From Candidatus Oxydemutatoraceae bacterium (GTDB taxonomy: Bacteria > Pseudomonadota > Gammaproteobacteria > Poriferisulfidales > Oxydemutatoraceae): a DNA stretch of 64,000 bases. Numbering within the stretch: the first letter of the stretch is position 1; every line of letters begins with the position of its first letter. Positions 6,155-20,572 of the stretch are shown one piece after another. The translations under genes and the position numbers were made by a program. The stretch spans positions 1,376,001 through 1,440,000 of the forward strand of contig OZ244717.1 in NCBI GenBank assembly GCA_965218975.1, given 5' to 3'. Below the pieces are notes generated by a model. It saw only the letters and a list, made by a program, of their open reading frames with translations. It was not told the origin of the DNA and did no database searches.

Positions 6155-6169
6155 AATAGTTTTTTTTTA

Positions 6170-6198
6170 ATTATAGTGATAAAGTTGTACGATGTCAC
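6170..6198 (-). promoter_or_regulatory. Candidate sigma70 hybrid promoter for the adhesin: -35 GTGACA inside the IS481 end, 17-bp spacer, -10 TATAAT in flanking DNA
   Basis: Minus strand reads GTGACA-tcgtacaactttatcac-TATAAT; the IS terminus (…cgtaca) lies within the spacer; the -10 box ends 16 nt before the adhesin ATG. Confidence 0.65.
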
Positions 6199-6279
6199 CC
6201 CTAAAAGGGATTTTTGAAGCGTTCGGTAGTAACATTCGGACCGGTGTTTTCTGTCCGTTGCCGGTATGAGGGTGGTGCG

Positions 6280-6642
6280 GGGTGAGACGTGCCCTGAAAA
6301 CCGACTGATTTTCAGCGGCGAACGACCCGACAAGGACGTCGGGGCTGGGGCTTGTTGACAGAACCCAGTCGCGTCATGGGTGAGACGCGCCCGGAAAACC
6401 AATTGGTTTTCAGCGGTGAACGACCCGACAAGGACGTCGGGGCTGGGGCTTGTTGACAGAACCCAGTCGCGTCATGGGTGAGACGCGCCCGGAAAACCAA
6501 TTGGTTTTCAGCGGTGAACGACCCGACAAGGACGTCGGGGCTGGGGCTTGTTGACAGAACCCAGTCGCGTCATGGACGACAGGCACTTTGCCGACAATCC
6601 GGCACAATCCGCCGACAACCTGGCAGCAAACACAAAACGGTT
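6280..6642 (-). repeat. Array 1: three tandem 98-bp structured units (6280-6573) plus ~70-bp leader
   Basis: GGGTGAGACG starts at 6280, 6378 and 6476 (period 98); the leader ends in ...cacaaaacggtt at 6642. Confidence 0.95.
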
Positions 6643-6848
6643 CCATAACCGGTCATTGAATGCTTCCGTATCGGCGAATAGCAGATTTTCTGCATGATCA
6701 ATACAATCCTCCTAAACCGTACGGTTAAAGCGCTTGATGTGCGCGTTCATTTTCAGACACTTGGGATAGGTCAGTCACTGCTCAATCGCGGATGATTCCA
6801 GGATGAGCTGGGCAAACTGTCCTTGAAACTCACTACCGCCGTCCGTCA

Positions 6849-7213
6849 GGGTGAGACGCGCCCGGAAAACCGATCGGTTTTCAGCGGCGAACGACCCGAC
6901 AAAGACGTCGGGGGCTGGGGCTTGTTGACAGAACCCAGTCGCGTCATGGGTGAGACGCGCCCGGAAAACCAATTGGTTTTCAGCGGCGAACGACCCGACA
7001 AGGACGTCGGGGCTGGGGCTTGTTGACAGAACCAAGTCTCGTCATGGGTGAGACGCGCCCGGAAAACCAATTGGTTTTCAGCGGCGAACGACCCGACAAA
7101 GACGTCGAGGCTGGGGCTTGTTGACAGAACCCAGTCGCGTCATGGACGACAGGCACTTTGCCGACAATCCGGCACAATCTGCCGAAAATCCACCACCAAA
7201 CTACAAAACGGTT
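6849..7213 (-). repeat. Array 2: three tandem 98/99-bp units (6849-7143) plus leader
   Basis: GGGTGAGACG starts at 6849, 6948 and 7046; the leader is similar to that of array 1. Confidence 0.95.
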
Positions 7214-8038
7214 CCATAACCGGTCATTGAATGCTTCCGTATCGGCGAATAGCAGATTTTCTGCATGATCAATACAATCCTCCCAAACCGTACGGTTAAA
7301 ACGCTTGATGTGCGCGTCCACTATACACGCCAGGGTCAGGCGCAGGAATGCGGCTGTTACAGCGGTTGGTTGCCACTGCCGTTGCCATGCGGGTATAGAC
7401 ATTGATGGCCGTTAAGATGGTGCGGCGCATCCCGTGCTGATAACGCACAATTGTATCCAGGGCGATGCAATGCCCCCGGATACTGTGCTTTGAAGTCTTT
7501 CGGCTTGTGTGCCCTGCAACGGCGCTTGAACAGTTGTTTTGTTTGCCCTTTGGCATTTGTGCGCTGCGGAATAACGGCGCATCTTGTCTGGGGCTGCGGC
7601 GATGATGCGCTCGATAGTCGAGACGCTGGGAGGTGGCCAGGGCCGCGGCGCGTACACCACGGCTCAAGCAACTTCTGCAGCGGCTGTTTACCTAAGTTCG
7701 GATAATCCTCGCGCAGGCGGCGGATTGCTTGCACCAAACCAGGCGGGCGTTGTGCTTTGCGGCGGCAGCGCTGCTACGTTGTATCCGGCCTCCCTCAAGG
7801 TCTGCCGCCACCGATACAAAGTACTGCGACCGACCTTGAATGCGTTCGGGAGTTACACCCTCCCAAAATGAGGGCATAGCATATTTCTGTTGAAGATTAG
7901 AGCGCTCATGAGCCTCCATTTTGTTAGCTAAATTGGCTCATATAGAAACCTTTGATGCGGTGGCCGATGTGTTGATATTGCATATCGGTCACCTTTTTGA
8001 GTTAAGCCGTGAGTCTCATATGTATCTGGCACTATACA

Positions 8039-8253
8039 TTCGCACAGCCGCAAAGCAAGCGCGCCACGGTGTACGGGCTGGAACGAAACAGCGGTGTTTT
8101 GCTGAATCTTGACCGGGTCTACCAAACTATGGACCACCTTGAGGAGGCGGTGATCGCACGCATCTAGGAACAGTTTCATCAGACAGCACAAAAGTTGTAT
8201 GACCGGCCTTGTGAGGTGTTCTTCTTTGATTGCACGGCACTGTCGAACTCAAG
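8039..8253 (+). mobile_element. IS1634-family transposase fragment with probable right end
   Basis: Translation AQPQSKRATVYGLERNSGVLLNLDRVYQTMDHLEEAVIARI*...EVFFFDCTAL resembles the IS1634 N-terminal/first-Asp region (from recall); ends in ctgtcgaactcaag; contains an internal stop. Confidence 0.6.
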
Positions 8254-8373
8254 TGAATATTTTGCAATGATTTTTCCGCACAATTAAAGTCTAAAAACAA
8301 GTCAGTGCGGCATTTGTTGATGCTTGTTTTTTTACCCTCGCAAGAGAATCAAGTAAGGTTTCCGGTGAAATAA

Positions 8374-9759
8374 TTATCGTGCCGCGTTCAGATAAAAGTA
8401 TTCGGTTTTTTTGCCTTTTTTAAGGACAATGAAATTTGCTGTAATGCTATTGATTGTGTACCCATTATCAAGTTGGGCGCCTTCGCTATAATGTTGCCCA
8501 TTACGCATGATGATGTGCGGATTTTCCCCGAAACCGATTCCGCGGATGTCTAGCTTTATCTGCGAATTGCGACTATTGTCGCTTTCAAGTGCCCATACAG
8601 CCAATGGTTTAGAGTTAAATTTATTATTAAAAGCCTCTTTTATTCGGGTTAACTGTTCTTGTTGTTCCTGATTTAATTTTCCTGAAAGGACTACGCCTTG
8701 CTGTGTTTCTGAAATTTTGACTTGTTTACTTAGCTGTATATCAGCCAACATCTGCTTCAATATCTCAATCCGGTCCTTTTGTGTCTGAACCTCGTCTTTC
8801 AGGTTATGGTAATTTTTAACATCGTGTTTTAATGTTTCTATCACTTCCGACCATTCCGCTTTATCTTTGGCATAACCTTTCAGGATGAAGTCGCCGGGCG
8901 AATCTGCAACCGCTGTTACTTCAACATGATTGTTTTCATCGCGGCTAAGAAATTCATCGACAATTGCGGATATGGCGTACATGGTTTTTTCCGCAGAGAT
9001 AATTTTTATTTCAGCATGAATGTCTATTTCCTTCAGCTGATTCAATAACCGCTTGCGGTTGATTTCAGTATCGATATAGCCCGTAATTTCCAGTAAATTT
9101 TTATTCGGATTTATTTCATTTACATCAATTTTGGTATTATATTTGTCTGCGATCAGCATGATTCGGTTAATTTGCTCCGGTCCAAGTAACGTATGTTTCT
9201 CATCTTCCGGCATCATTAGCCAAGTGCTTAGCACAGTAAGGAGAATACCAATGGGCAGTACGATAGCGAGTAAATAAGCCCAAGAAAAAGACTTTTTACC
9301 GGCATCATCCGATTTTGTTTTAGCCTTTTTTATGCCGTCTTCATCGCTACGGCTTGAATCATTGACGTCATCTGTTTTTTGAGCATCGTCACTTTTTGCT
9401 TGTGCCGGATTTATTTTGTTATCCCAAAGCAAGTCTATTGTTGGCCACTCTGCGTCAGAAGGTCCCGTTGCCAGGAACAAAGTTCCGATGGTAATCACTT
9501 GGAAAGGGTTGAGTAGAGTGGTTTTTTCAGTGAATTTTTCGCCGTCGATATAAATGGGTTTTTCGGTATCCAATAATGTTAAATGCGCTCCCGACTTATC
9601 GCTACGTAAGCTGATATGTTTGCCGGAGAGGCTGACATCGTCTAAAACCAAATCGCAACTTTCATCCTTTCCCAAAACGGCTTCTTTATCCGACAAAACT
9701 ATTTCGGCGCCGATATGAGTGCCCGATAATATTTTTAAAATCCAGGAATTGTTCGACAT
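8374..9759 (-). CDS. sctD: Type III secretion inner-membrane ring protein SctD (YscD/EscD/HrpQ family)
   Basis: N-terminal FHA-like domain (LKILSGTHIGAEIVL...CDLVLDD...H), a single TM segment, periplasmic ring domains and a YscD-like C-terminus (GQHYSEGAQLDNGYTINSIT). Confidence 0.8.
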   Translation of the reverse strand: MSNNSWILKILSGTHIGAEIVLSDKEAVLGKDESCDLVLDDVSLSGKHISLRSDKSGAHLTLLDTEKPIYIDGEKFTEKTTLLNPFQVITIGTLFLATGPSDAEWPTIDLLWDNKINPAQAKSDDAQKTDDVNDSSRSDEDGIKKAKTKSDDAGKKSFSWAYLLAIVLPIGILLTVLSTWLMMPEDEKHTLLGPEQINRIMLIADKYNTKIDVNEINPNKNLLEITGYIDTEINRKRLLNQLKEIDIHAEIKIISAEKTMYAISAIVDEFLSRDENNHVEVTAVADSPGDFILKGYAKDKAEWSEVIETLKHDVKNYHNLKDEVQTQKDRIEILKQMLADIQLSKQVKISETQQGVVLSGKLNQEQQEQLTRIKEAFNNKFNSKPLAVWALESDNSRNSQIKLDIRGIGFGENPHIIMRNGQHYSEGAQLDNGYTINSITANFIVLKKGKKTEYFYLNAAR

Positions 9760-9925
9760 GACACCTTTGTCTGAGAGAAAGTATTTTATTCTATTATAGA
9801 AAAACCTTTTTCTTTCTGTTGTTTTTGTTCTTTTTAGCGCATCATTCCTAGTTTGTCGGAGTGATAACGGGGAATGACGGCGTCAAATGCAGCGCTCATG
9901 ATATTGAGGCAATCAGGCGCCTTTA

Positions 9926-10002
9926 AAGCACCGATCCGAATGTTACTGCCGAATGCTTCTCCCGAAGCTTTTCAAAAATCGCATTTAGGGTGGCATCGTA
10001 CA
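9926..10002 (+). mobile_element. Isolated IS481 right-end fragment
   Basis: caccgatccgaatgttactgccgaatgc...aaaaatcgcatttagggtggcatcgtaca matches the IS ends at 6186 (reverse complement) and 20487. Confidence 0.8.
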
Positions 10003-10123
10003 GGCTATTGTTTTATCTTATTTTTGATTATATGATTAGCCGCTTTATTGATTTAGCTAAAGTTAGGGAAGCCTTTCCGGAATGCATACCGGATATTTAT
10101 GGCGAATACAGTAGGAGGCAATA

Positions 10124-11038
10124 ATGACTCTGCATCAGCTGGAAATTGTTGCTATGTTGTTAAAAAGTAATTTTAATATCTCAATCACTGCCGGAAAACT
10201 AAACCGGGTGCAATCAAGCATTAGCCATCAATTGCACTTGCTTGAGCATGAAGTCGGCGGCCGTTTGTTTGAGCGGCATGGGAAGCGTTTAACCGGAGTT
10301 ACGCCATTGTGCCGCAGTTTACTTCCGGATATTGAAAATGCCTTACAGGCCAAAAAGAACATTGGTTTGATCGTCGACGAGCACACCGATACGGATAGCG
10401 GTTTTCTCAGAATTGCCACGACTCATACCCAAGCACGCTATTTTTTGCCTCAAGCAGTTAAAACCTTCAGACGTAAATACCCTAAGGTGCAATTGGTTTT
10501 CTATTTGGACAGCCCGATAAAATTTTCCGAGCTTTTAAAGAGGCATGAAATTGATCTTGCTGTTTCCGTTGAGAGCGCCGAACAAATCCCCGAACTTGCG
10601 GAGAAAAAATGCTATAGTTGGAATCGAAGCTTTGTGGTTTGCCGCGGGCATCCTTTGGCAATCGGACCGTTAAGTCTCCAAGCAATCGCTGAATACCCTA
10701 TTATCACATATATGCACGGTTTTGCCGACCGCGATATCATAGAACAAACGTTTCACAATGCCAAAATTGATATCGACGTTGCTTTTAGCGCCGGTGATAC
10801 CGATGTAATCAAGACCTATGTGGAACTTAATTTGGGAGTGGGGATTGTGGCACAAATGGCCCAATCGCCTGCGGCCGACAAAGACCTAGTCTTTCGTAGC
10901 TTAGAACATTTGTTTGAAGGTTCGACAACTCGGGTGGTGTATCTGAAAGAACAGCCTCAACGTCAATATATGCGCGACTTTATCAATATTTTGCACGCTC
11001 TGGGACAGGACTTTGAAGCAAAATTAAAGCAAGCTTAA
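10124..11038 (+). CDS. cysB: LysR-family regulator, CysB/Cbl type
   Basis: MTLHQL HTH start; IATTHTQARYFLP and DTDVIKTYVELNLGVGIVA motifs; AGGAGG RBS. Confidence 0.85.
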   Translation: MTLHQLEIVAMLLKSNFNISITAGKLNRVQSSISHQLHLLEHEVGGRLFERHGKRLTGVTPLCRSLLPDIENALQAKKNIGLIVDEHTDTDSGFLRIATTHTQARYFLPQAVKTFRRKYPKVQLVFYLDSPIKFSELLKRHEIDLAVSVESAEQIPELAEKKCYSWNRSFVVCRGHPLAIGPLSLQAIAEYPIITYMHGFADRDIIEQTFHNAKIDIDVAFSAGDTDVIKTYVELNLGVGIVAQMAQSPAADKDLVFRSLEHLFEGSTTRVVYLKEQPQRQYMRDFINILHALGQDFEAKLKQA

Positions 11039-11050
11039 TTGCGCTTTACG

Positions 11051-11524
11051 ATGCGAGAAGCGCTTTCAATTATTTTTATTTGTTCGCAAAATACTTGCCG
11101 TTCCATCGCAGCGGAAGCTGTTTTTACTTATTTGATAACCGAAACAAAAATGCGGTTTCAAGTCGCGTCATCGGGAACGGATGCGGTACGTGACCGCCGT
11201 CCTGATATCGGCATTCGTCAAGCCGCAGAGTTACGTGGATATTCGCTGGAGAATTATTATTCCAAGCCTCTGCAAGACTCGGATTTGCTTACGTTTGATT
11301 ATTTATTAGCAATGGATCGGTCTATTCTGCGCAAAGTGCGAATTCGCGCTAAAAAAGAGCGTGAAAGTAAAATAAGACTGCTAGGTGATTACTCAAGTTT
11401 TTTTCATGGGAAGGAAATTTTATATCCCGCTTCTCAAGAAATACGTGACTTTATCTGTGTGTTTGATTACATTGAGGATGCTTGTTTAGGTCTGTGGAAG
11501 CACTTAACGCAAGCAATGAGGTGA
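11051..11524 (+). CDS. Low-molecular-weight protein-tyrosine phosphatase-like protein
   Basis: P-loop CSQNTCRS (CX5R), SSGT and FDYLLAMD motifs; the DPY loop is degenerate. ATG 11051 is preferred over TTG 11039. Confidence 0.8.
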   Translation: MREALSIIFICSQNTCRSIAAEAVFTYLITETKMRFQVASSGTDAVRDRRPDIGIRQAAELRGYSLENYYSKPLQDSDLLTFDYLLAMDRSILRKVRIRAKKERESKIRLLGDYSSFFHGKEILYPASQEIRDFICVFDYIEDACLGLWKHLTQAMR

Positions 11525-11546
11525 ATCAATCCGCTGCCAATGGGGC

Positions 11547-12029
11547 TTATAAGCGCGTCGGATTTGCTTGCTCTTTATAGACTTCTTCCGGGTCAAACAT
11601 TTTTTCTTTGTCGATTCTTTCAAGTTTAATCCGATGCGGCTGTTCGGTTAAAACTGCGCGATAAAAACAAGAGCGATAGCCGACATGACAACTCGCTTTG
11701 CCGCCAACGTCCACTTTCAACCAAATTGCATCTTGATCATCATCCACTAAAATCTTCCGAACTTTTTGGATAAAACCACTGGTCGCTCCTTTGTGCCACA
11801 ATACTTTGCGGCTACGGCTCCAGTAGTATGCTTCGCCGGTTTCGATTGTTTTAAGCAATGCCTCGGCATTCATGTAGCCGAGCATCAAGACTTCACCGCT
11901 ATCATAGTCTGTGGTGACAACCGCAATTAAACCATCATTATTGAATTTCGGTGCGAGTTCAAGACCTTCCTCAATTTGTTTGACACTATTGCGTTGCGTA
12001 AAAGGGACCGAGGCGTTGGCATCAATCAT
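11547..12029 (-). CDS. hisI: Phosphoribosyl-AMP cyclohydrolase
   Basis: VLMLGYMN, YYWSRSR..LWHKGATSG and SCHVGYRSCFY motifs. Confidence 0.9.
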   Translation of the reverse strand: MIDANASVPFTQRNSVKQIEEGLELAPKFNNDGLIAVVTTDYDSGEVLMLGYMNAEALLKTIETGEAYYWSRSRKVLWHKGATSGFIQKVRKILVDDDQDAIWLKVDVGGKASCHVGYRSCFYRAVLTEQPHRIKLERIDKEKMFDPEEVYKEQANPTRL

Positions 12030-12105
12030 AATTTTTCTATACGGTTATTTTGAAAGCAGTTTTTGCAAAATTGTAGCAGGAAATTTGTCGAATTGCCGGT
12101 ATTCA

Positions 12106-12342
12106 TTACTTCCCTTTGGGGGGAATCGGATCTCTGCCGCCGACGGAAAAGGGATGGCAATGGCACACGCGCCGGAGTATTAAATACATCCCGTAGCATA
12201 CGCCGTGCATTTTTAGTGCTTGCACCGCATATTCCGAACAGCTAGGGGTGAAGCGGCAGCTTTGCCGGGTAAACGGTGTGATCAGGTAGCGGTAGGCGTA
12301 AATCAACCCAAGCAAGAATTGAACGACTATTTTCTGCGCCAT
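12106..12342 (-). CDS. yidD: Membrane protein insertion efficiency factor
   Basis: YRYLITP..SCRFTPSCSEYA...RVCHCHPF..GGRDPIP; start at MAQK. Confidence 0.9.
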   Translation of the reverse strand: MAQKIVVQFLLGLIYAYRYLITPFTRQSCRFTPSCSEYAVQALKMHGVCYGMYLILRRVCHCHPFSVGGRDPIPPKGK

Positions 12343-13688
12343 TGAGTTTGCCCCGCCTTGTCTTCCAAACAAATGCCCGCCGTGCTGAGTTGTTCGCGTA
12401 TTTGATCGGCTTGTGCATAATTACGTTTGTTGCGTGCTTCCTCGCGCTGTACTATCAGCGCTTCGATGGAAGCATCGCCCAAAGTGTTTTGGGTTGCCGG
12501 TGCTCTCCGGAACCATGCTTGCGGGTCTGCATGCATCAGCCCCAATTGGTGTGCTGAAGAAATCAAGGTTCTAATTTGATTATCGCGGCGCAGCTCATGC
12601 AATCGCACAATTGCTTGCGGAGTGTTTAAATCATCGCATAGCGCTTTCATTACTGCGGGGTCCGGTTTGCCATCCATAATGTTCCCGCTCGCATCAAAAT
12701 TTACTTTGGCATCCAATATGCTGCGGTACATTTTATCCAAATTTGTTTTTGCTTCCGTCAACTTACTCTCGGTCCAGTTTAACGGCTTACGATAGTGAGT
12801 ATTGAGCAGAGTATAGCGGATTACTTCGCCGTCGTGCCGTTCTAATACTTCGCGTAGAGTAAAAAAGTTGTTCAACGATTTAGACATTTTTTCACTGTTG
12901 ACCGTGATATAGCCATTATGTACCCAATAGCGGGCAAATATCTCTTGGTTATAAGCGCAGCAACTTTGCGCAATCTCATTTTCATGGTGGGGAAATATCA
13001 AATCTTGTCCGCCGCCATGGATGTCAATGACTCGATCAAGATGCACTTTTGCCATAGCTGAGCATTCCAAATGCCAGCCGGGACGGCCTCTTCCCCACGG
13101 ACTATCCCAACCAGGTTGGTCGATAGAGGAGGGTTTCCATAAAATAAAATCGGCGGGGTTTTTTTTGTAATCGGCAACTTCAACTCGTGCGCCGGCAATC
13201 ATATCCTCAACATTGCGTTTAGACAGCTGTCCGTATGTGGGCATGGCGGTTACATCGAATAAAATATTTCCGCTTGCTTCATAGGCAAATTTTTTGGCAA
13301 TAAGTTGTTCGACCATATCAATCATCTGCGGCAAATGTTCGGTTGCACGAGGTTCTACGGTTGGCGGCAAGGTGTTGAGTCGTGCAATGTCATTGTGGAA
13401 TGCTTTGCTGTAAGTTTCGGTAACCTCGTTGCATGTTTGGCTATTATCTTTTGCCGTTTGGATAATTTTGTCGTCAATATCGGTAATATTACGTACATAA
13501 ACCACCTCCGGGTAAATTAATTTCAGCAGACGGAATAAGGTATCGAAAATGACTATCGGTCGCGCGTTACCGATATGTATGTAATTATACACCGTCGGTC
13601 CGCAAACATACATCAATACTCGTTGTCGGTTGATCGGTTCAAATCCTTCGTGTTTTGCGCTGAGTGTATTGAAAAGTCTAATCACCAT
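12327..13688 (-). CDS. cysS: Cysteine--tRNA ligase
   Basis: CGPTVY..HIGN, GRPGWHLECSAM and KMSKS motifs. Confidence 0.97.
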   Translation of the reverse strand: MVIRLFNTLSAKHEGFEPINRQRVLMYVCGPTVYNYIHIGNARPIVIFDTLFRLLKLIYPEVVYVRNITDIDDKIIQTAKDNSQTCNEVTETYSKAFHNDIARLNTLPPTVEPRATEHLPQMIDMVEQLIAKKFAYEASGNILFDVTAMPTYGQLSKRNVEDMIAGARVEVADYKKNPADFILWKPSSIDQPGWDSPWGRGRPGWHLECSAMAKVHLDRVIDIHGGGQDLIFPHHENEIAQSCCAYNQEIFARYWVHNGYITVNSEKMSKSLNNFFTLREVLERHDGEVIRYTLLNTHYRKPLNWTESKLTEAKTNLDKMYRSILDAKVNFDASGNIMDGKPDPAVMKALCDDLNTPQAIVRLHELRRDNQIRTLISSAHQLGLMHADPQAWFRRAPATQNTLGDASIEALIVQREEARNKRNYAQADQIREQLSTAGICLEDKAGQTQWRRK

Positions 13689-13707
13689 TGATCATCCGTA
13701 GTATCGG

Positions 13708-15837
13708 CTATTGTTGTTGTTTCGTTTCTACCTGCGTCAGTCCCGTTGGTTTGGAAAACTTTGGCATATCATCACTTTGGGTTTGTTTGGATGCGGGAGC
13801 GGACGAGGTCGCCGGATCATATACGCCTTGTTGCGATAATGAGGAATGATCACCGGTTGGTTTTTCCGATGTTGACAGTTTGTTTATCGACGTATTTTCT
13901 GTCGTCGCTTGATCGGCGGAAGATGAGCGTCGTGCCGCTTTCTCTTTCGATGCCTGTCGATAAGGTTTTCGACTCGATTGGCGGCTACGGGAAATCTCCG
14001 CTGGTTTGCTTTCGCTTTGCCGTTGACGATTTGAATATTCGTTGTTTTTGCGCCGCGTCAACTGTTTGTTATTTTGGCGACGACCATTGCCGCGTCTTCT
14101 ACGGTAACGATTATTATTCGACGGCAGTTTTTGCGGTCCCATTTGCTGCGATGACTTTTCCGTCGCAGGCTTACGGGTAAACAATGAATCGAAAAACTTT
14201 CTAAGAAATGAGCTTACCGGGGCTGGTCTGTCCGGTATAATCGGACTGACTGCCGGCAGCTCTTGAGGTCGAGTTACTTTTTTTTCAATCTGCCGGATTA
14301 CATTGTTGGCATAAAAATCATCGCGTGGATTGTCAAACTCGTAGCTAAGTTTTTTTTTCATTTCTTTGTCATCAACTCGATAGCGGCTGATTTGAAAATG
14401 TGGTATTTCCATACGAATATCCGGGACCACAGTTAACTGCACGCCATACCGCTTAGAGATATCGTTGATGCTCTTTCTTTTTTCATTGAGGAGATAACTT
14501 GTGACTTCAAGCGGTAAATGGGCGACTACTTGACCGGTTTTTTCTTTGCTTGCCTCGTCTTCCATCATTCGCAATACCGCGATGGCGCTGGACTTCAAAG
14601 TACGGATATTACCGCTACCGTTACACCTGGGGCAGGTAATGTAGCTAACATCACCTAATGAAGGATGTAGGCGTTGCCGCGACATTTCTAACAAACCGAA
14701 GCGTGAAATTCGTCCGAGTTGAACTTTTGCTCGGTCTTGCATCATAGCATTGGTCAAAGCATTTTCAACTTTTCTTTGGTTGGAAGTTGAAAGCATGTCA
14801 ATGAAGTCAACTACTATCAATCCGCCGACATCGCGTAAGCGCAGTTGTAATGCTATTTCTTCACATGCTTCAAGGTTAATTGCCAGAGCGGTTTCTTCAA
14901 TATCTTTTCCCTTGGTTGCTCTTCCGGAATTAATATCAATCGATAATAATGCTTCGGTATGGTCGAATACCAGCGATCCTCCGGAAGCCAGACTAATTTC
15001 GTGTTTATAAGCTGTTTCAATTTTTCCTTCAATCTGGTAATGGCTGAATATCGGGACAGTGCCTTCATATAGATGCACGCGGTCGGTATGTGTCGGCATA
15101 ATTATTTTCACAAACTTTTCGGCGCGTGCATAAACTTCTCGGGTGTCAACCACCACCTCGTTGGTATCGTCTTTGAAATGATCGCGCAAGGAGCGGATAA
15201 CAATATCGTTTTCTTGATAGACTAAAAAAGGCGCTGGCCTCCCTTTTGCCGCTTTAACAATGGCCACCCACAGCTTGCGCAGATAGTTTAGGTCCCATTG
15301 TAAATTCTTCTCGTTACGTCCGATTCCGGCAGTGCGTACAATCAGACCTTCCTCTTTCTCTAATGTAATTTGTTCAAGCACCAGATGCGCTTCTTCACGT
15401 TTCTGACCGCGGATTCGACGTGACACGCCATTGGCACATGCGTTATTGGGCATTAGAACAAGATAGCGTCCGGCAAGGCTGATGTAAGTTGTAAGGGCAG
15501 CGCCTTTCGTTCCTCGCTCTTCACGCTGGATTTGAACTAAAACTTGCTGTCCTTCTTTCAGCAAATTTGCATTTAAAGTATCAGGTATCCGATCGTTTTG
15601 GTGATAATAAGATTCGGTAATATCCTTAAACGGCAGAAAACCATGCCGGGCACCGCCGTAATTTACAAATACGGCGTTAAGGCTCGGTTCAATACGGGTG
15701 ATACTTCCTTTATAGATATTACTTTTTTTCTGACGAAGAGAGGGTATCTCTATGTCTAGGTCGAGTAGTTTTTGGCCATCTACGATGGCGACTCGAAGTT
15801 CTTCTTGTTGGGCTGCATTGATAAGGATTCTTTTCAT
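13708..15837 (-). CDS. rne: Ribonuclease E
   Basis: MKRILINA..EELRVA start, S1 domain, IDINSG, CPRC Zn-link and an Arg-rich disordered C-terminus. Confidence 0.95.
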   Translation of the reverse strand: MKRILINAAQQEELRVAIVDGQKLLDLDIEIPSLRQKKSNIYKGSITRIEPSLNAVFVNYGGARHGFLPFKDITESYYHQNDRIPDTLNANLLKEGQQVLVQIQREERGTKGAALTTYISLAGRYLVLMPNNACANGVSRRIRGQKREEAHLVLEQITLEKEEGLIVRTAGIGRNEKNLQWDLNYLRKLWVAIVKAAKGRPAPFLVYQENDIVIRSLRDHFKDDTNEVVVDTREVYARAEKFVKIIMPTHTDRVHLYEGTVPIFSHYQIEGKIETAYKHEISLASGGSLVFDHTEALLSIDINSGRATKGKDIEETALAINLEACEEIALQLRLRDVGGLIVVDFIDMLSTSNQRKVENALTNAMMQDRAKVQLGRISRFGLLEMSRQRLHPSLGDVSYITCPRCNGSGNIRTLKSSAIAVLRMMEDEASKEKTGQVVAHLPLEVTSYLLNEKRKSINDISKRYGVQLTVVPDIRMEIPHFQISRYRVDDKEMKKKLSYEFDNPRDDFYANNVIRQIEKKVTRPQELPAVSPIIPDRPAPVSSFLRKFFDSLFTRKPATEKSSQQMGPQKLPSNNNRYRRRRGNGRRQNNKQLTRRKNNEYSNRQRQSESKPAEISRSRQSSRKPYRQASKEKAARRSSSADQATTENTSINKLSTSEKPTGDHSSLSQQGVYDPATSSAPASKQTQSDDMPKFSKPTGLTQVETKQQQ

Positions 15838-16151
15838 TGTTCGTCCATTTATATTGATACGCTACTGTGTGGCACTCGTGCGTTTTTTCGAATAAATTGA
15901 GCAGGGACCGCTGTATGATGGGTAAAGTCATCGGATTAAAATTTTGAGTTTTTTCTTGTAGCAATGTTAGAATGTAATCGCAATTCATTGAATTTTTTTC
16001 CACTATCCCCGCGGGATGTCCATATATTTATTGCCATGTCGGACATATTTTCATTTCCCCCCAAACATCATTTGCTTAATAATTGACCGTTTTTCGGTTG
16101 CTTAAACTGTTGATTCAAAAAGCTTTAAGCATTTGTAATGTTACTATACGT

Positions 16152-16180
16152 ATTTTACCGCAAGAGTCGGTTGCTTGCAA
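16152..16180 (-). promoter_or_regulatory. Candidate sigma70 promoter for rne (TTGCAA-17-TAAAAT), implying a ~300-nt 5' UTR
   Basis: Minus strand reads TTGCAA-gcaaccgactcttgcgg-TAAAAT; a long rne leader is known from E. coli autoregulation. Confidence 0.5.
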
Positions 16181-16185
16181 TATTT

Positions 16186-16578
16186 TGTATAGGTCCATAA
16201 CATTTGGCACTCCGGGTGGTGAGTCAGGAGCGAATGATGGGGGCGTTGGGTGTTGTAAAACACCAGCCATTGCGCCAATTCCCGGTTAAAGCAGGCTACA
16301 TCAATGAACAGAAGGTCCTCGTGGTAGTCCACGAATGATTCCTGCAAGCTGCGGTTGAAGCGCTTGATGTGCGCATTCATTTTCGGACACTTGGGATAGG
16401 GCAGCTGTTGTTCAATCACAGGTGATTCCCGGATGACCCGGGCGAACTGTCCTTGAAACTCGCTGCCGCTGTCCGCCGGGGCGTATTTCACTGGCGACGC
16501 GGACTTTATTACGGCCGTGCAAAGCCACTGAGCCCGGCGCGACGATAGCGTTGACGCCAACGATATAAAGTGCTGCAA
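16186..16578 (-). mobile_element. IS481-family transposase C-terminal remnant with right end
   Basis: DSGSEFQG..YPKCPKMNAHIKRFNRSLQESF..FYNTQRPHHSL..CQMLWTYT; terminus TGTATAGGTCC at 16186. Confidence 0.85.
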
Positions 16579-16764
16579 CTGATTTTGAGTGCATCCAAAG
16601 GTGCGTTTATCTCGTGTTTATTTTGGAATGCCGGGTTATCAAGTTTTTAGTTGAACGATTGTACTCGTTATTATCTTTGCTTTCGAAATCAGGCCGACAC
16701 GTACAGTACAATCAGTACAATATCAAATTAATTATAGGAGAGTGCTTTTTGGGGGGAGCAATCT

Positions 16765-17715
16765 ATGCATCCGAAAACTACAGATGATAGTATGCTAAAA
16801 AAAGGAGTTTGTCGACAAAACATTGACGCAGCCAGTGTCGGACGTCGAATCGACAACTATCTTTTTTCAATATTAAAAAAAGTTCCCCAAAGTCGTATTT
16901 ACCGGATGATTCGAAGCGGCGAAGTACGCGTTGATGGCAGCCGCGTGAAACCATATTATCGTCTGCAAGTAGGTGAGGAGATTCGCATACCGCCGGTACA
17001 GTTGAAGCGGCCCTCATCAACGCCGCTAATGATTGATTCTTGTGAAGAGCAACGCATACGCAAAAGTATTTTGTATGAAGATGATATTTTGCTCGTGCTG
17101 AATAAACCTGCCGGTTATGCGATGCATGCCGGTAGCCGTTGTAACATTGGTTTAACCGAGATGCTCCGGCAGTTATTTTATGCTTCGTTGGTACCGGTGC
17201 ATCGTTTGGACCAAGGCACGAGTGGCTGTCTGCTGTTTTCTAAAACCCGAAGTTCATTACGCGAGTTGCATCGTAATTTTCAACATCGATTGGTTAAAAA
17301 ACGGTATCTAGCTTTGGCGGTGGGGCGGTGGGATATGCGGCGAACTCGAGTAACGGCTCCGCTGACCGTACGTCATCGGCGACAAGGGCCAAATGTTCAA
17401 GTTGATGGGATGCAAGGATATGCGGCAGAGACTCAGTTCGAAATAGCGCGTAGGTTTGGTCAGGCGACATTGCTCCGAGTGTCTCCATTGAGCGGGCGTA
17501 TGCATCAAATCCGTGTACACGCCGCTTATTGCGGGTATCCCATCGCTGGTGATCAACGTTACGGCGACTTTGTAATGAATCGCTGGCTGAGAAGATTGGG
17601 GCTGAAACGTTTATTTTTACATGCGGAATATTTGGCATTTGATTTTAGTGGTCGGCACTATGCCTTTGATGCGCCATTACCCGATGAACTGTCACGGTTC
17701 TTGGATATACTATAG
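16765..17715 (+). CDS. rluC: 23S rRNA pseudouridine synthase RluC
   Basis: S4 domain, HRLDQGTSG and GRMHQIRVH motifs; divergent from rne as usual. Confidence 0.9.
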   Translation: MHPKTTDDSMLKKGVCRQNIDAASVGRRIDNYLFSILKKVPQSRIYRMIRSGEVRVDGSRVKPYYRLQVGEEIRIPPVQLKRPSSTPLMIDSCEEQRIRKSILYEDDILLVLNKPAGYAMHAGSRCNIGLTEMLRQLFYASLVPVHRLDQGTSGCLLFSKTRSSLRELHRNFQHRLVKKRYLALAVGRWDMRRTRVTAPLTVRHRRQGPNVQVDGMQGYAAETQFEIARRFGQATLLRVSPLSGRMHQIRVHAAYCGYPIAGDQRYGDFVMNRWLRRLGLKRLFLHAEYLAFDFSGRHYAFDAPLPDELSRFLDIL

Positions 17716-17832
17716 GATGGTTATCTACGCAACAGCGGAAATGAGAGTCTGTGCGGTACTGTCGGGATTTTCTCAATCCTGATTTTACCGCTGCCGATAA
17801 AACAATAAGTTGTTTTAATAAAGGAGGGTTTA

Positions 17833-18762
17833 ATGTTTGATGAGCAAGAAAAACAAGCACTGGTTCAATTTGCGAAAGAATCATTGAAGGAGAAACGGCG
17901 TGCGCGACGGTGGGGAATTTTCTTTAAATTGGCATTATTGTTCATCGTAGCCGCTGTTTTGCAGACAGTAAGACTCGAAAATATTGAGTTGCCTGGTAAA
18001 ACGGCTGAGCATACCGCGCTGGTAAAACTTGAAGGAATTATTTTACCAAACACTCCGGCGAGTTCGGATCAAATTAATTTGGCATTGATGAACGCATTTG
18101 AGAATGAGCAAGCAAGAGCCGTGATTTTGGAGTTGAATACTCCGGGCGGCAGCGCCGTTCAGTCAGCACGTATTTATAATGAAATAAAACGCCTGCGCGA
18201 CAAATACCCTGACAAGCCGATTTATGCTGTCGTCAATGATATTTGCACATCAGGTGGTATGTTTGTGGCGGTCGCTACGGATAGAATTTATGCTGACCCT
18301 GCAAGTTTGCTTGGTTCTATCGGTGTCATTATGAATGGCTTTGGTTTGGAAGAGATGATTGATAAGCTCGGCATCAAGCGCAGATTATTAACGGCAGGTG
18401 AACATAAAGCGATGTTGGACCCATTTCTTTCACAGAACTCTAAAGAAGTTGCCCATGTTCAAAAAATCTTGGATGAAGTGCACGCTTATTTTATCGGCAA
18501 AGTGAAAGAAGGGCGTGGCGATAAATTGGCGGAGGATGCTGATTTGTTCAGCGGGTTAATTTGGAATGGCGCTCAGGCGAAAGAGTTAGGATTAGTTGAT
18601 GAGTTCGGCGATGTAAAATACGTTGCGCGTGAAGTCGCAAAAATAGAGCGGATTGAAGAGTACCGCGGAAAAGAGGATTTATTTGAACGTTTGGCATTTT
18701 TTGTAAGCAAAGCCTTATCTTTGGCGCTAACGCAATCGCTTTTTCATCCCTTGATGTATTGA
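17833..18762 (+). CDS. sppA: S49 family signal peptide peptidase
   Basis: NTPGGS, CTSGG and GSIGVI motifs. Confidence 0.85.
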   Translation: MFDEQEKQALVQFAKESLKEKRRARRWGIFFKLALLFIVAAVLQTVRLENIELPGKTAEHTALVKLEGIILPNTPASSDQINLALMNAFENEQARAVILELNTPGGSAVQSARIYNEIKRLRDKYPDKPIYAVVNDICTSGGMFVAVATDRIYADPASLLGSIGVIMNGFGLEEMIDKLGIKRRLLTAGEHKAMLDPFLSQNSKEVAHVQKILDEVHAYFIGKVKEGRGDKLAEDADLFSGLIWNGAQAKELGLVDEFGDVKYVAREVAKIERIEEYRGKEDLFERLAFFVSKALSLALTQSLFHPLMY

Positions 18763-18775
18763 AAGTTGGCTTAAT

Positions 18776-19354
18776 TTATGGGATTTTCCAACCCATAGCG
18801 CGTAGCATACGACAGATGGTAATTAAAGGCAGTCCTTGCAATGCGCTGGGGTCTTTGCTACTGATTGATTTAAATAAACTAATGCCGTATTCCTCGCTAC
18901 GGAAACTGCCGGCGCAATCGTATGCCGGTTCTTGCTTAATATAGCGTTCAATTTCGTCAAATTTCAGCTGGCGGAAATGCACTTGAGTCGGCACGTCAGC
19001 AAGTTGATACTTGCCGGTGGAGGCATCCAGCAGGCAAACCCCGGTGTGAAACTTAACATGTCTGCCGGAACATTGCATGAGCTGCTGTTTGGCAATTTCA
19101 AAATTTCCTGGTTTGCTCAAAAACTTTTTCTGAATACAAGTGGTTTGATCGGCGCCGATAATCAGCGCATTCGGATAATATGTCACGGCGGCTCGTGCCT
19201 TTTCCAACGATAGACGCTGCACTAGTTCGCTAGCGCTTTCTTCGGGATGCGGCATCTCGTCAACTGGCGCACAACAGACTATAAAGGGAAGGTTTAGGCG
19301 CGAAAGCAGTATTTCGCGTGATTTTGACGTTGAAGCGAGAATCAGTTGCGGCAT
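18776..19354 (-). CDS. Maf-family nucleoside triphosphate pyrophosphatase (YceF type)
   Basis: LILASTS, IIGADQ, KPG, CAGSF and LQGLP motifs. Confidence 0.9.
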   Translation of the reverse strand: MPQLILASTSKSREILLSRLNLPFIVCCAPVDEMPHPEESASELVQRLSLEKARAAVTYYPNALIIGADQTTCIQKKFLSKPGNFEIAKQQLMQCSGRHVKFHTGVCLLDASTGKYQLADVPTQVHFRQLKFDEIERYIKQEPAYDCAGSFRSEEYGISLFKSISSKDPSALQGLPLITICRMLRAMGWKIP

Positions 19355-19794
19355 GGTGTTTTGTTTGTTATTTGTTTTCCAATTATAGCTTCAGTTGCCG
19401 CTGTCTTATTCATTGATTGCGATGAGGAATTATATATCTGATGACAATTTTAAGATTGATGTTGTGTCATCGTGCCGAATACTGTACGTGCACGGATACA
19501 TACTGGATTCTTGGATGCCAATAAAAAGGTGGCCGGTATACAATACCGGCACATCACCGGCACATCGGTCGTCACATCAAAGATTTCTATACGAGCCTTT
19601 TTAGCTAACAAAGTGGGGCTCATGAGCACAACGGCTCAACAGAAATATGATGTCGCTAGTATTTTGTGAGGGTATAACTCCCGAACCCATTCAAGATCGG
19701 TCGCAGTACTTTGTACCGCTGGCGTCGGCGTTATCGCCGTACTGGCCTCAGCGCCTTACATGATCGCGGCAAAGCGCCGCGTAAGAGGCGCCAG

Positions 19795-19920
19795 CGGATT
19801 GTCAGCAAAGTGCCTGTCGTCCATGACGAGACTTGGTTCTGTCAATGAGCGCCAGCCCCGACGTCCTTGTCGAGTCGTTCGCCGCTGAAAACCGATCGGT
19901 TTTCCGGGCGCGTCTCACCC
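19795..19920 (+). repeat. Array 3: one 98-bp unit (19823-19920) with 5'-truncated leader
   Basis: Reverse complement of the 6280-type unit, ending ...gcgcgtctcaccc. Confidence 0.9.
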
Positions 19921-19965
19921 TGCGCCGGGTGAATCTCGGCAGCAGTAAAATCTTTGAGCTGATGA

Positions 19966-20208
19966 AACCGTTTTGTGTTTGTTGGGGATTTTTAGCGTAA
20001 TGTCTGTCGTCCGTGACGCGACTGGGTTCTGTCAACAAGCCCTAGCCCCGATGTCCTTGTCGGGTCGTTCACCGCTGAAAACCAATTGGTTTTCCGGGCG
20101 CGTCTCACCCATGACGCGACTTGGTCTTGTTGAATGAGCGCCGGCTCCGATATCTTTGTCGGGCCGTTCACCGCTGAAAACCGGTCGGTTTTCCTGGCCA
20201 TCTCACCC
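19966..20208 (+). repeat. Array 4: two 98-bp units (20013-20110, 20111-20208) with leader
   Basis: Leader aaccgttttgtgtttg; both units end in tctcaccc; the second unit is more diverged. Confidence 0.9.
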
Positions 20209-20572
20209 TCGTGCCGTCGCGCGCATCATTGCCGATGCACCGGATAGAATGTGCACTATTTCCGTCCGTATCAACGCCGGATATATGCCCATGTTGAGCG
20301 TTTCAACCGTACTCTACAAGAAGACTTTACAGGACTACAATGAGGAACTATTGTTTACGGATTCGGATGAATTTAACGAGCGTCTATGTCATATTTGGAG
20401 TGGTACAATATGCGCCGACTGCATGCCGGTTTAGGTCAGTTGATCCCCAACAACCCTAAAAAATCCCATTTAGGGTGGCATCGTACATCAGTTTGCCACA
20501 TTAGACTTTAAAGTATATGCTGTACGCATTAAATAATATATTATACATAAGCGTTTACCCAAATTAGTACAG

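Follow-up and report, generated by a model that had tools for sequence, protein, structure and literature searches.

In this study, we explored a 98-nt tandem repeat unit that resides inside decayed IS481-family insertion sequences (IS) of the sponge-associated gammaproteobacterium Candidatus Oxydemutatoraceae bacterium. Starting point was a window of 64,000 nt (the whole stretch of DNA analysed; positions 1,376,001 to 1,440,000 of contig OZ244717.1, assembly GCA_965218975.1), from which the unit was followed through the genome and into other genomes. We lean towards a reading in which the unit descends from a foreign, gene-less DNA element of three hairpins that hitch-hiked in IS481 and would by now be a fossil driven by recombination. 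Members of its family are present in about one tenth of the sampled gammaproteobacterial families, usually at the ends of tRNA genes or with exact placement at stop codons. In the present genome, four or five sites in the interior of IS481-family elements took up a few copies, the joints were inherited or passed on while the IS multiplied to ~70–85 remnants, and the 98-nt body then multiplied in tandem to 325 units.

Four arrays in two IS481 remnants

Units were counted by blastn with one 98-nt unit as query, in the window as well as in the whole genome, which consists of one contig of 2.081 Mb with 47.7% G+C and is 99.4% complete. In the window, nine units were found at 6280–6573 (three), 6849–7143 (three), 19823–19920 (one) and 20013/14–20208 (two), with no further unit in the remaining 64-kb window. 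Tandem Repeats Finder reported the two longer arrays with period 98 at 6280–6575 (3.0 copies, 96% matches) and 6844–7145 (3.1 copies, 94%), and the blastn result agrees with the nine units in four arrays listed in a preliminary description of this stretch. A 24-nt hairpin motif had eight window matches at up to three mismatches, compared to none in 100 shuffles.

Two decayed IS481-family copies, 6186–8038 on the minus strand and 19483–20487 on the plus strand, enclose all four arrays, each of which lies in transposase sense and closes with the same bases, ...TCTCACCC. The DNA behind this shared end belongs to four different transposase positions (the HRPHAGNG tail, LTDGGSEF, LRR.NLG and AVARII), and the G/T-rich leaders in front measure 69, 72, 28 and 47 nt, in line with the ragged 5' side of ~28 to ~70 bp described before. 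The first IS copy is itself a duplication, with core, leader and array each occurring twice. The features of both copies are as follows (window positions).

6186–6279, minus strand: right end of IS481 copy 1 and the 3' tail before it, from the native HRPHAGNG codons to the terminal TGTACGATG... repeat; tail and right end have 85 copies in the genome (blastn)
6280–6573, minus strand: array 1, with three 98-nt units and a joint to the IS tail (Tandem Repeats Finder, blastn; joint bridged by contigs of runs X1 and X4)
6574–6642, minus strand: leader of array 1, starting with AACCGTTTTGTG, with 11-nt GGATTGTSSSC repeats and a core ending in ...GTGCCTGTCGTCC
6643–6848, minus strand: IS481 transposase piece from LTDGGSEF to FNDRLW, the second copy of a higher-order duplication (query 6650–6848)
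6849–7143, minus strand: array 2, three units; the 5' flank is of position-1 type, the 3' flank (LTDGGSEF) of position-4 type
7144–7215, minus strand: leader of array 2, 72 nt
7216–8038, minus strand: rest of IS481 copy 1, with the left end (TGTATAGTGCC... at 8038), the N-terminal helix-turn-helix and the decayed catalytic core up to FNDRLW
19483–19794, plus strand: left end of IS481 copy 2 together with its N-terminal part, as far as ...DRGKAPRKRRQR
19795–19822, plus strand: short leader, 28 nt, position 3 (class U3)
19823–19920, plus strand: array 3, one unit of the type II haplotype
19921–19965, plus strand: transposase piece LRRVNLGSSKIFELMK
19966–20012, plus strand: leader, 47 nt, position 2, whose first bases AAACCGTTTTG are the native KPFC codons
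20013–20208, plus strand: array 4, two units
20209–20487, plus strand: rest of IS481 copy 2, with ...AVARIIADAPDRM, then an internal deletion, followed by the native C-terminus LEWYNMRRLHAGLG and the IS right end

The preliminary description had named chimeric assembly of the junctions as a way in which it could fail. Short-read contigs of runs X1 and X4, which may come from the sample used for the genome assembly, run from unique DNA (5876) via the IS tail into the first unit (to 6336 and 6325) without any difference; the tail joint of array 1 is thus bridged and not peculiar to one assembly. Many short-read contigs stop at the IS end at 8038 and are too fragmented in the repeats to reveal array polymorphism. 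In run X6, which carries another organism label, a 200-nt contig matches window positions 7121–7174 (leader and unit start) behind a different upstream flank, indicating that a related repeat-bearing IS481 is present in another sample.

The carrier agrees with the definition of the IS481 family, a DDE (rve) integrase-core transposase with an N-terminal helix-turn-helix: a 183-aa catalytic piece matches 349-aa proteins with PF00665, PF13683 and helix-turn-helix families (E 2.5e-55), and transposases of this family typically have about 320–380 aa. No intact IS481 transposase is left in the genome, where the longest open frame spans 246 aa and all copies are broken. For the terminal inverted repeats that begin with TGT... 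at both ends of such elements, the candidate sequences, read by eye, are TGTATAGTGCC on the left (8038) and TGTACGATGTCACC on the right (6186).

Several further repeats lie in the window. A remnant of a sister IS481 subfamily at 16147–16617 on the minus strand (1392147–1392617 of the contig), ~53% identical in the RFNRT region, keeps its native C-terminus WLVFYNTQRPHHSL and is free of arrays. Tandem repeats at 712–1540 (period 351, 2.4 copies, 95%) and 4318–4663 (period 135, 2.5 copies, 69%) are located in apparent long repetitive coding regions upstream of IS copy 1.

Census of the unit in the genome

Genome-wide, 326 blastn matches remain as ~325 units in 196 arrays after removal of overlaps, with one to seven units per array (109 singles, 61 doubles, 19 triples and 7 longer). 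The units add up to 31,026 nt or 1.49% of the genome, and recognisable IS481 DNA without units makes up another 2.67%. The fixed 3' end noted in the window holds for most arrays: 173 of the 196 end at unit base 98, 14 at base 96 or 97 and 9 elsewhere, while 185 begin at unit base 1 or 2.

IS481 DNA lies within 200 nt on both sides of 114 of the 196 arrays, while most of the remainder stand next to a further array or a long leader. At 160 arrays, an IS481 feature in the same orientation is present within 300 nt, three have an antisense feature only and one has both, leaving 32 without any IS481 feature by this strict test, most of which stand between short IS pieces. The earlier claim that the unit occurs only inside IS481 and only in transposase sense therefore stands for all four window arrays, while genome-wide it is nearly, not strictly, true, with one locus between ordinary genes, one or two more with non-IS flanks, and three to four arrays antisense to an IS481 copy. 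The true exceptions are a lone element between ordinary genes (393302–393465), two inverted arrays that flank a toxin–antitoxin pair fused to an IS481 left end (149–154 kb), and a 302-bp higher-order repeat at 1035 kb which ends in the IS right end. None of the arrays in this genome directly adjoins a tRNA gene, the shortest distance being 154 nt.

At the second of these loci (149.8–150.6 kb, minus strand), a gene pair that we named by eye as nucleotidyltransferase/HEPN-like is fused to the IS481 left end plus the 16 initial transposase codons, with unit arrays following; a second, inverted array lies 3.4 kb away, and a 96-nt inverted repeat is located outside both arrays. At the third (1034980–1035740), each of three 302-bp copies comprises the last 69 nt of a unit and non-IS DNA, and the last copy ends in the IS481 right end. 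Additionally, a 22–24 nt palindrome (cctgyctgtg...cacagacagg) is found inside the loops of both hairpins of one unit (405385–405486) and also at 416543, 712564 and 785835; it resembles a further, even smaller hairpin element sitting within the unit.

A foreign unit with three hairpins

The similarity between the unit and native IS481 DNA is no better than that of shuffles, which renders the unit foreign to IS481 and led us to reject a derivation from IS481 sequence. In all copies, the unit starts with ATGRCG... and ends with ...GGCTCACCC. Terminal inverted repeats are missing, as had been noted before: end-to-end complementarity is at shuffle level, with 828 of 1000 shuffles reaching the observed score for the 5' 30 nt of the leader and 647 of 1000 for the leader core, each compared with the 3' 30 nt of the unit. 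Rfam offers no name for the unit either. At gathering score, the scan of the window returned three tRNAs only, hits in 6150–7350 at E up to 10 being noise, and nothing matched the element in nine loci of other genomes.

Within the genome, hairpin 2 occurs in the compensated variants AAAAGC..GCTTTT and AAAACT..AGTTTT. A further hairpin spans the border between leader and unit, where the last bases of the leader core (GTCRTCC; GTGCCTGTCGTCC in array 1, hairpin 0) pair with the first bases of the unit (ATGAC). In relatives from other genomes, the third hairpin GCCATCC|ATGGC corresponds to this pairing, which argues that leader core and one unit together represent one ancestral element. Unit and leader core would thus form a single gene-less DNA element of ~110 nt with three hairpins. 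The leader core itself may, to judge by eye, go back to native position-3 or position-4 codons. For the type I unit, a cloverleaf-like fold (z = -3.5) was dropped as a candidate structure, since the closing and first stems of this fold are broken in the commoner type II haplotype.

Joints and native alleles

For positions 1 to 4, array-free alleles are present in the genome, which identifies the arrays as insertions. Codon loss was measured against these array-free sister copies, and the joints were placed with the help of the closest intact transposase in the protein collection (P0002, 349 aa, 55% identity). The replaced codons stand between the retained flanks in the following list.

Position 1: FNDRLW - EYLAWYKL - HRPH, 8 codons replaced
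Position 2: ELMKPFC - HRHQLL - CPSVRTIARL, 6 codons replaced
Position 3: KRRQR - TWPQLIQREIKR - LRQ, 12 codons replaced, ~7 in a variant that keeps RRTWPQ
Position 4: VLPPP - VKYI - LTDGG, 4 codons replaced

The loss of roughly 9–11 codons, judged by eye in the preliminary description, is thus only approximately right. Microhomology at the joints amounts to 1–7 nt and target loss to 0–36 nt, in agreement with the earlier observation that insertions in IS481 lack a target-site duplication. The native side of every 3' joint starts with (C)TG, giving an overlap of 1–4 nt with the final C residues of the unit, and the 5' joints share ATGR, GTTTTG, GGCGG or GCCGCAA. A type IIS site, CGTCTC, at the unit end was considered as a putative cause of this hot 3' edge. 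The fifth insertion is clean: a third IS481 subfamily carries leader and units in antisense, flanked exactly by ...ctcaaccctccc and tgccgatagg..., with zero bases lost and CCC on both sides (native allele at 559392–559880).

Leaders reveal how some positions were seeded. The long leader starts with native position-2 codons (AAACCGTTTTG, KPFC) yet also stands at position 1, and a leader with GCCGCAACC, which is native to position 4, stands at position 3 too. At least two positions were therefore seeded by copying with a few flank bases. Leader length changes in steps of 10–11 nt, reflecting the number of GGATTGTSSSC repeats. Within arrays, first and middle units mostly belong to haplotype I and last or only units mostly to haplotype II (33 last, 30 only).

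Spread of the joints and shuffling of the arrays

IS481 remnants with the same joints number ~70–85, the left-end region being found in 67 copies and the tail with the right end in 85. The recurrence of the same few joints in dozens of IS copies indicates a handful of events that multiplied with the IS or were passed on by recombination. This inheritance speaks against the earlier proposal that the element targets or disables IS481, either as a hyperparasite or as a host function, and an anti-IS function for the unit is not supported.

Downstream flanks fall into 35 clusters, the largest being the IS tail (57 arrays), LTDGG (28), LRQAYPNLG (28), CPSVRT (19) and the tail minus its first 17 nt (11), and upstream flanks into classes of 65, 44, 21, 18, 12 and 6 arrays with 30 others. 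Every 5' flank class pairs with several 3' flank classes; the position-2 5' flank, for instance, is joined to the tail (17), LTDGG (14), LRQ (13) and its own partner CPSVRT (10). Arrays consequently act as recombination hubs, and the mixing of flanks is the pattern that unequal recombination between arrays would be expected to leave, in which the IS segment between them is deleted or duplicated. In a set of 32 near-full core copies, positions 4 and 1 show every one of the four possible combinations of native and array states (25, 4, 2 and 1).

In principle, the joints could also have arisen without any enzyme, as microhomology-mediated template-switch patches at hairpins that merely stall replication forks, with no dedicated mobility machinery anywhere. 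Such patches would carry donor flank bases along, as seen for AAACC of position 2 at position 1 and for GCCGCAACC, common to positions 3 and 4; they would also account for a series of single tail deletions, each anchored at the unit end with CC or CCC overlap, and for the fact that no candidate enzyme was found in this genome. However, passive junk would not keep two compensated hairpins with identical loops and linkers across at least 15 distant genomes, and the recurrent exact placement at tRNA D-loops, T-arms and GGGTGA stops is left unexplained. We therefore regard a purely enzyme-free origin as rather unlikely.

Relatives in other gammaproteobacterial genomes

Nucleotide searches at first sight suggest a unit private to this genome. 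By blastn, it matched none of 40 relatives and nothing in plasmid or phage collections, and two unit motifs had no exact match in metagenome or genome contig collections. All of this would fit a local minisatellite that was born by slippage inside IS481. Yet such an origin is at odds with the dissimilarity between unit and IS481 DNA and with native alleles that show insertions, and a structure-aware search returned full-length relatives with the same start, linkers and end, which makes a private minisatellite very improbable. Judged by these sequence and structure matches, the family is not private to this genome. Together with the foreign unit and its exact 3' end, relatives with the same ends elsewhere agree with the earlier description of a non-autonomous element.

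A blastn search of 400 class genomes with leader and two units gave one weak match, which proved to be a full-length relative. It shares the start RTGRCGnGAC, AAGCCCCAGCC, the linker GGTCGTTCGCC and the end GCTCACCC; in hairpin 1 the stem bases are changed but complementary around the same xTCCxT loop, and the stem of hairpin 2 is wholly different. A covariance model, R1, built from 18 units, all from this genome, was run on 150 other genomes of the class, each from a different gammaproteobacterial family, and on a phylum-wide sample of 150 genomes. Matches in other genomes had E values of 1e-8 to 1e-3. The model was positive in 15 of the 150 class genomes, with up to 13 copies per genome and some tandem arrays, and in two of the 150 phylum-wide genomes, both of the same class.

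Covariation was counted for two helices over 47 matches in 33 loci. There, 96.9% of the cells are paired, changes on both sides occur in 158 cells compared to 45.5 in shuffles, and the covariation score is 0.594 compared to 0.04–0.08 with the partners slid. G–U pairs account for only 2 of the 477 paired cells in the family. Even though the alignment favours pairing, covariation of this size and the near-absence of wobble pairs suggest that the hairpins were selected as DNA. On one strand, xTCCxT is present in all three loops. Elsewhere as here, the 3' end is exact and the 5' side variable, with the part before the first hairpin differing in length and sequence between genomes; exact 3' end, ragged 5' side and a target overlap resembling the element end are therefore properties of the family and not specific to IS481.

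The paired cells also bear on whether RNA was involved. In a retro-element similar to a short interspersed element (SINE), an RNA ending in ...CUCACCC would be copied at nicked targets by target-primed reverse transcription, as would suit the exact 3' end of 173 of 196 arrays with their ragged leaders, a target change ranging from 36 nt lost to 30 nt gained, and the C, CC or CCC microhomology at the 3' joint. In contrast, the scarcity of G–U pairs is unlike structured RNAs, the element takes either orientation relative to neighbouring tRNA genes, and the 99.4% complete genome has no match to the reverse transcriptase domain RVT_1 (PF00078). A SINE-like origin is thus improbable, an RNA intermediate is unlikely, and the route via RNA and reverse transcription proposed in the preliminary description is not borne out.

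Targets: tRNA genes and stop codons

Of 36 loci in other genomes, 17 have a tRNA gene at a distance of up to 200 nt and 19 one within ~310 nt, these loci not all being independent; for a random site, we estimate the chance of a tRNA gene as close as 200 nt at ~1%. Two arrangements were observed. In the first, the element follows the tRNA in the same sense and a repeat of the last 14–17 nt of the tRNA stands behind it. In the second, the antisense D-loop-to-5' part of a tRNA gene directly adjoins the CTCACCC end, and a direct repeat of 16–30 nt starts 2 nt inside the element. Such direct repeats are absent at non-tRNA sites.

In three loci, according to open reading frame calls and Pfam, the last six bases of the element, which are GGGTGA on the opposite strand, supply the Gly codon and the stop with which a gene ends; these genes encode ribosomal protein L36, a 298-aa Xer-type tyrosine recombinase and a TSCPD-domain protein. 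Two further loci, at another L36 gene and another recombinase gene, are alike by eye. The overlap with the stop codon of the Xer-type recombinase occurs in two genomes of one family (G508, contig C10 at ~35.1 kb; G512, contig C1 at ~3.321 Mb) and may be fortuitous or may point to the mobilising enzyme. Family members also form tandem arrays directly next to a tRNA-Met or tRNA-Phe gene, with a period of ~145 nt (G065, contig C1 at ~1.016 Mb, corresponding to locus L064, 777–1747; locus L065, 1206–1605), in which each repeat includes a copy of the 5' piece of the tRNA.

Placement at stops raises the question of whether the element serves its hosts, as a stabiliser or terminator at mRNA 3' ends or as an RNA bound by CsrA/RsmA, with the IS481 copies being accidental. 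Its antisense strand starts exactly at the stops of the L36, Xer-type recombinase and TSCPD-domain genes and has GGA in all three loops, which read ANGGA, a CsrA-type binding motif. Against a useful host element stand the near-absence of G–U pairs, the occurrence in both orientations relative to tRNA transcription and the location of nearly all copies of the present genome in dead transposase genes, and we consider this function quite improbable.

Search for a mobilising enzyme

Besides RVT_1, Pfam searches of this genome gave no match to Y1_Tnp (PF01797), to the IS110 DEDD transposase (PF01548) or to TnpB (PF07282). Nor was there any match to Y2_Tnp (PF04986), the HUH transposase of IS91-type rolling-circle, one-ended transposition, for which the control search was silent too, so that this blank is uninformative; in control searches of 14 genomes, Y1_Tnp was found in six, RVT_1 in three and the IS110 domain in six. 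For this genome, the lack of a Y1_Tnp match leaves the HUH/RAYT (REP-associated tyrosine transposase; REP, repetitive extragenic palindromic) route suggested earlier without support. Six tyrosine-recombinase matches are present, none of which adjoins an array.

Several observations weigh against a foreign hairpin element that was once moved by its own enzyme. The search revealed no mobilising enzyme, and no integrase or transposase lies within 3 kb of the nine loci examined in other genomes. Y1_Tnp occurs in 12 of 15 element-bearing genomes and in 93 of 151 overall, which gives no clear link (only this tally takes in two genomes flagged as unpublished). One mechanism must furthermore cover both the 16–30 nt duplications at tRNA genes and the loss of 0–36 nt in IS481. 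Array-bearing IS copies required transposase in trans, yet none of the IS481 transposases of this genome is still intact. The same position-1 joint recurs in a diverged IS481 copy (74% identity), with no obvious conversion tract. Orientation of the loci to replication is weakly biased (57 versus 34 loci, p = 0.02). Finally, the alignment used for covariation was fitted to the model and leans towards the structure.

Comparison with known systems

The unit belongs with the small hairpin repeats of bacteria and, where membership was tested, falls into none of the known kinds compared here. REP elements and REPINs are the nearest in outline, being short, gene-less, strand-specific and multi-copy hairpin repeats, often located just after genes, which lack terminal inverted repeats and whose hairpins are kept by Watson–Crick compensation. 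REP sequences, however, are palindromes of 20–40 nt with a conserved GTAG head, usually arranged in inverted pairs, whereas the present unit is longer (~100–110 nt), contains three different hairpins in one orientation and shows no GTAG head by eye. There is, in addition, neither a Y1_Tnp gene in this genome nor clear co-occurrence with Y1_Tnp elsewhere, and direct repeats at tRNA ends are not a REP feature.

Miniature elements of the IS200/IS605 group (palindrome-associated transposable elements, PATEs) likewise lack inverted ends and combine subterminal hairpins, one exact cleavage-like end and strand specificity with a likely single-stranded DNA form. In our element, hairpins lie near both ends and the loops are strand-asymmetric. 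The differences are the lack of TnpA and TnpB in this genome, the ragged 5' side, the 16–30 nt tRNA duplications and the apparent lack of a fixed target of 4–5 nt on one flank.

BOX elements of pneumococci (boxA, repeated boxB, boxC) are modular, as are the arrays with leader, type I units and a mostly type II last unit, and both are non-coding, rich in hairpins and variable in copy number. There is no sequence relation, and BOX elements are dispersed between genes and not inside an IS. Folded sites of tyrosine recombinases, such as integron attC and the attP of phage CTX used by XerC/XerD, would resemble the element in a function that depends on a folded single strand with Watson–Crick stems and asymmetric unpaired bases. 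Further likenesses are the segments of identity to tRNA 3' ends, of a size typical for integrases, and the two copies abutting an Xer-type recombinase gene; integrase insertions on the 5' side of a tRNA are unusual. The core sites of attC are RYYYAAC ... GTTRRRY at its two ends; comparison by eye with this consensus revealed no GTTRRRY-type core at the unit ends, no integrase gene is near, and recombinase action is an analogy here.

[quoted passage not shown] In the endosymbiont Cardinium, an IS982-derived MITE is reported to invade other mobile elements (PMC9769881). In both cases, a non-autonomous element went through a lineage-specific burst in a bacterium restricted to its host, adding to the decay of other mobile elements. 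The Cardinium element derives from its parent IS and keeps the IS ends, in contrast to a unit that is unrelated to IS481 and has no inverted ends. Full-text literature searches, judged by titles and the openings of abstracts, listed no description of tandem repeats inside IS481 or of a tRNA-linked hairpin element of this kind; ISfinder and supplements were outside this search, and a prior description is possible.

Conclusions

We propose a model in which the foreign hairpin element entered IS481 in few events and was afterwards amplified by its carrier. Watson–Crick-only compensation and xTCCxT loops on one strand make it most likely that the element, exact at its 3' end and only loosely delimited on its 5' side, functions as a folded single DNA strand which an enzyme reads. 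Array-bearing IS copies would have been moved in trans by transposase from copies since lost. Unequal homologous recombination between arrays would then have produced the combinations of flanks, and microhomology jumps anchored at the 3' edge of the arrays the tail deletions. With the enzyme seemingly gone from this genome, the element would persist as a fossil kept moving by recombination and such jumps. Near-restriction to IS481 would mostly reflect multiplication of the carrier, recombination between its copies and the selective removal of deletions extending beyond the IS into genes.

Beyond this model, we tentatively put forward, as a possibility with a fair chance though less likely than not, an undescribed class of mobile DNA. 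It would comprise elements of ~110 nt with three hairpins, read as single strands, with an exact GGCTCACCC end, homing to sites similar to that end (the tRNA D-loop, the T-arm and GGGTGA stops) with 16–30 nt duplications at tRNA genes, and moved by an enzyme, perhaps an Xer-type recombinase acting on folded DNA; in the sponge symbiont, it would be a parasite of a parasite that hastens the decay of IS481.

To our knowledge, REP, BOX and MITE sequences shape bacterial genomes, while the movement of most of them is not understood. The family reported here is well defined by its exact ends, strong covariation seemingly at the DNA level and sharp preference for tRNA ends and stop codons, and provides one genome in which it reached 1.5% of the DNA by riding an insertion sequence. 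With these exact ends, covariation and target preference, the mobilising enzyme should be findable by phylogenetic profiling, and the family is testable at the bench in cultivable carriers. For the organism itself, internal repeat arrays turn IS copies into hubs that delete and duplicate their own parts, and thus constitute a route of IS decay in host-restricted bacteria.

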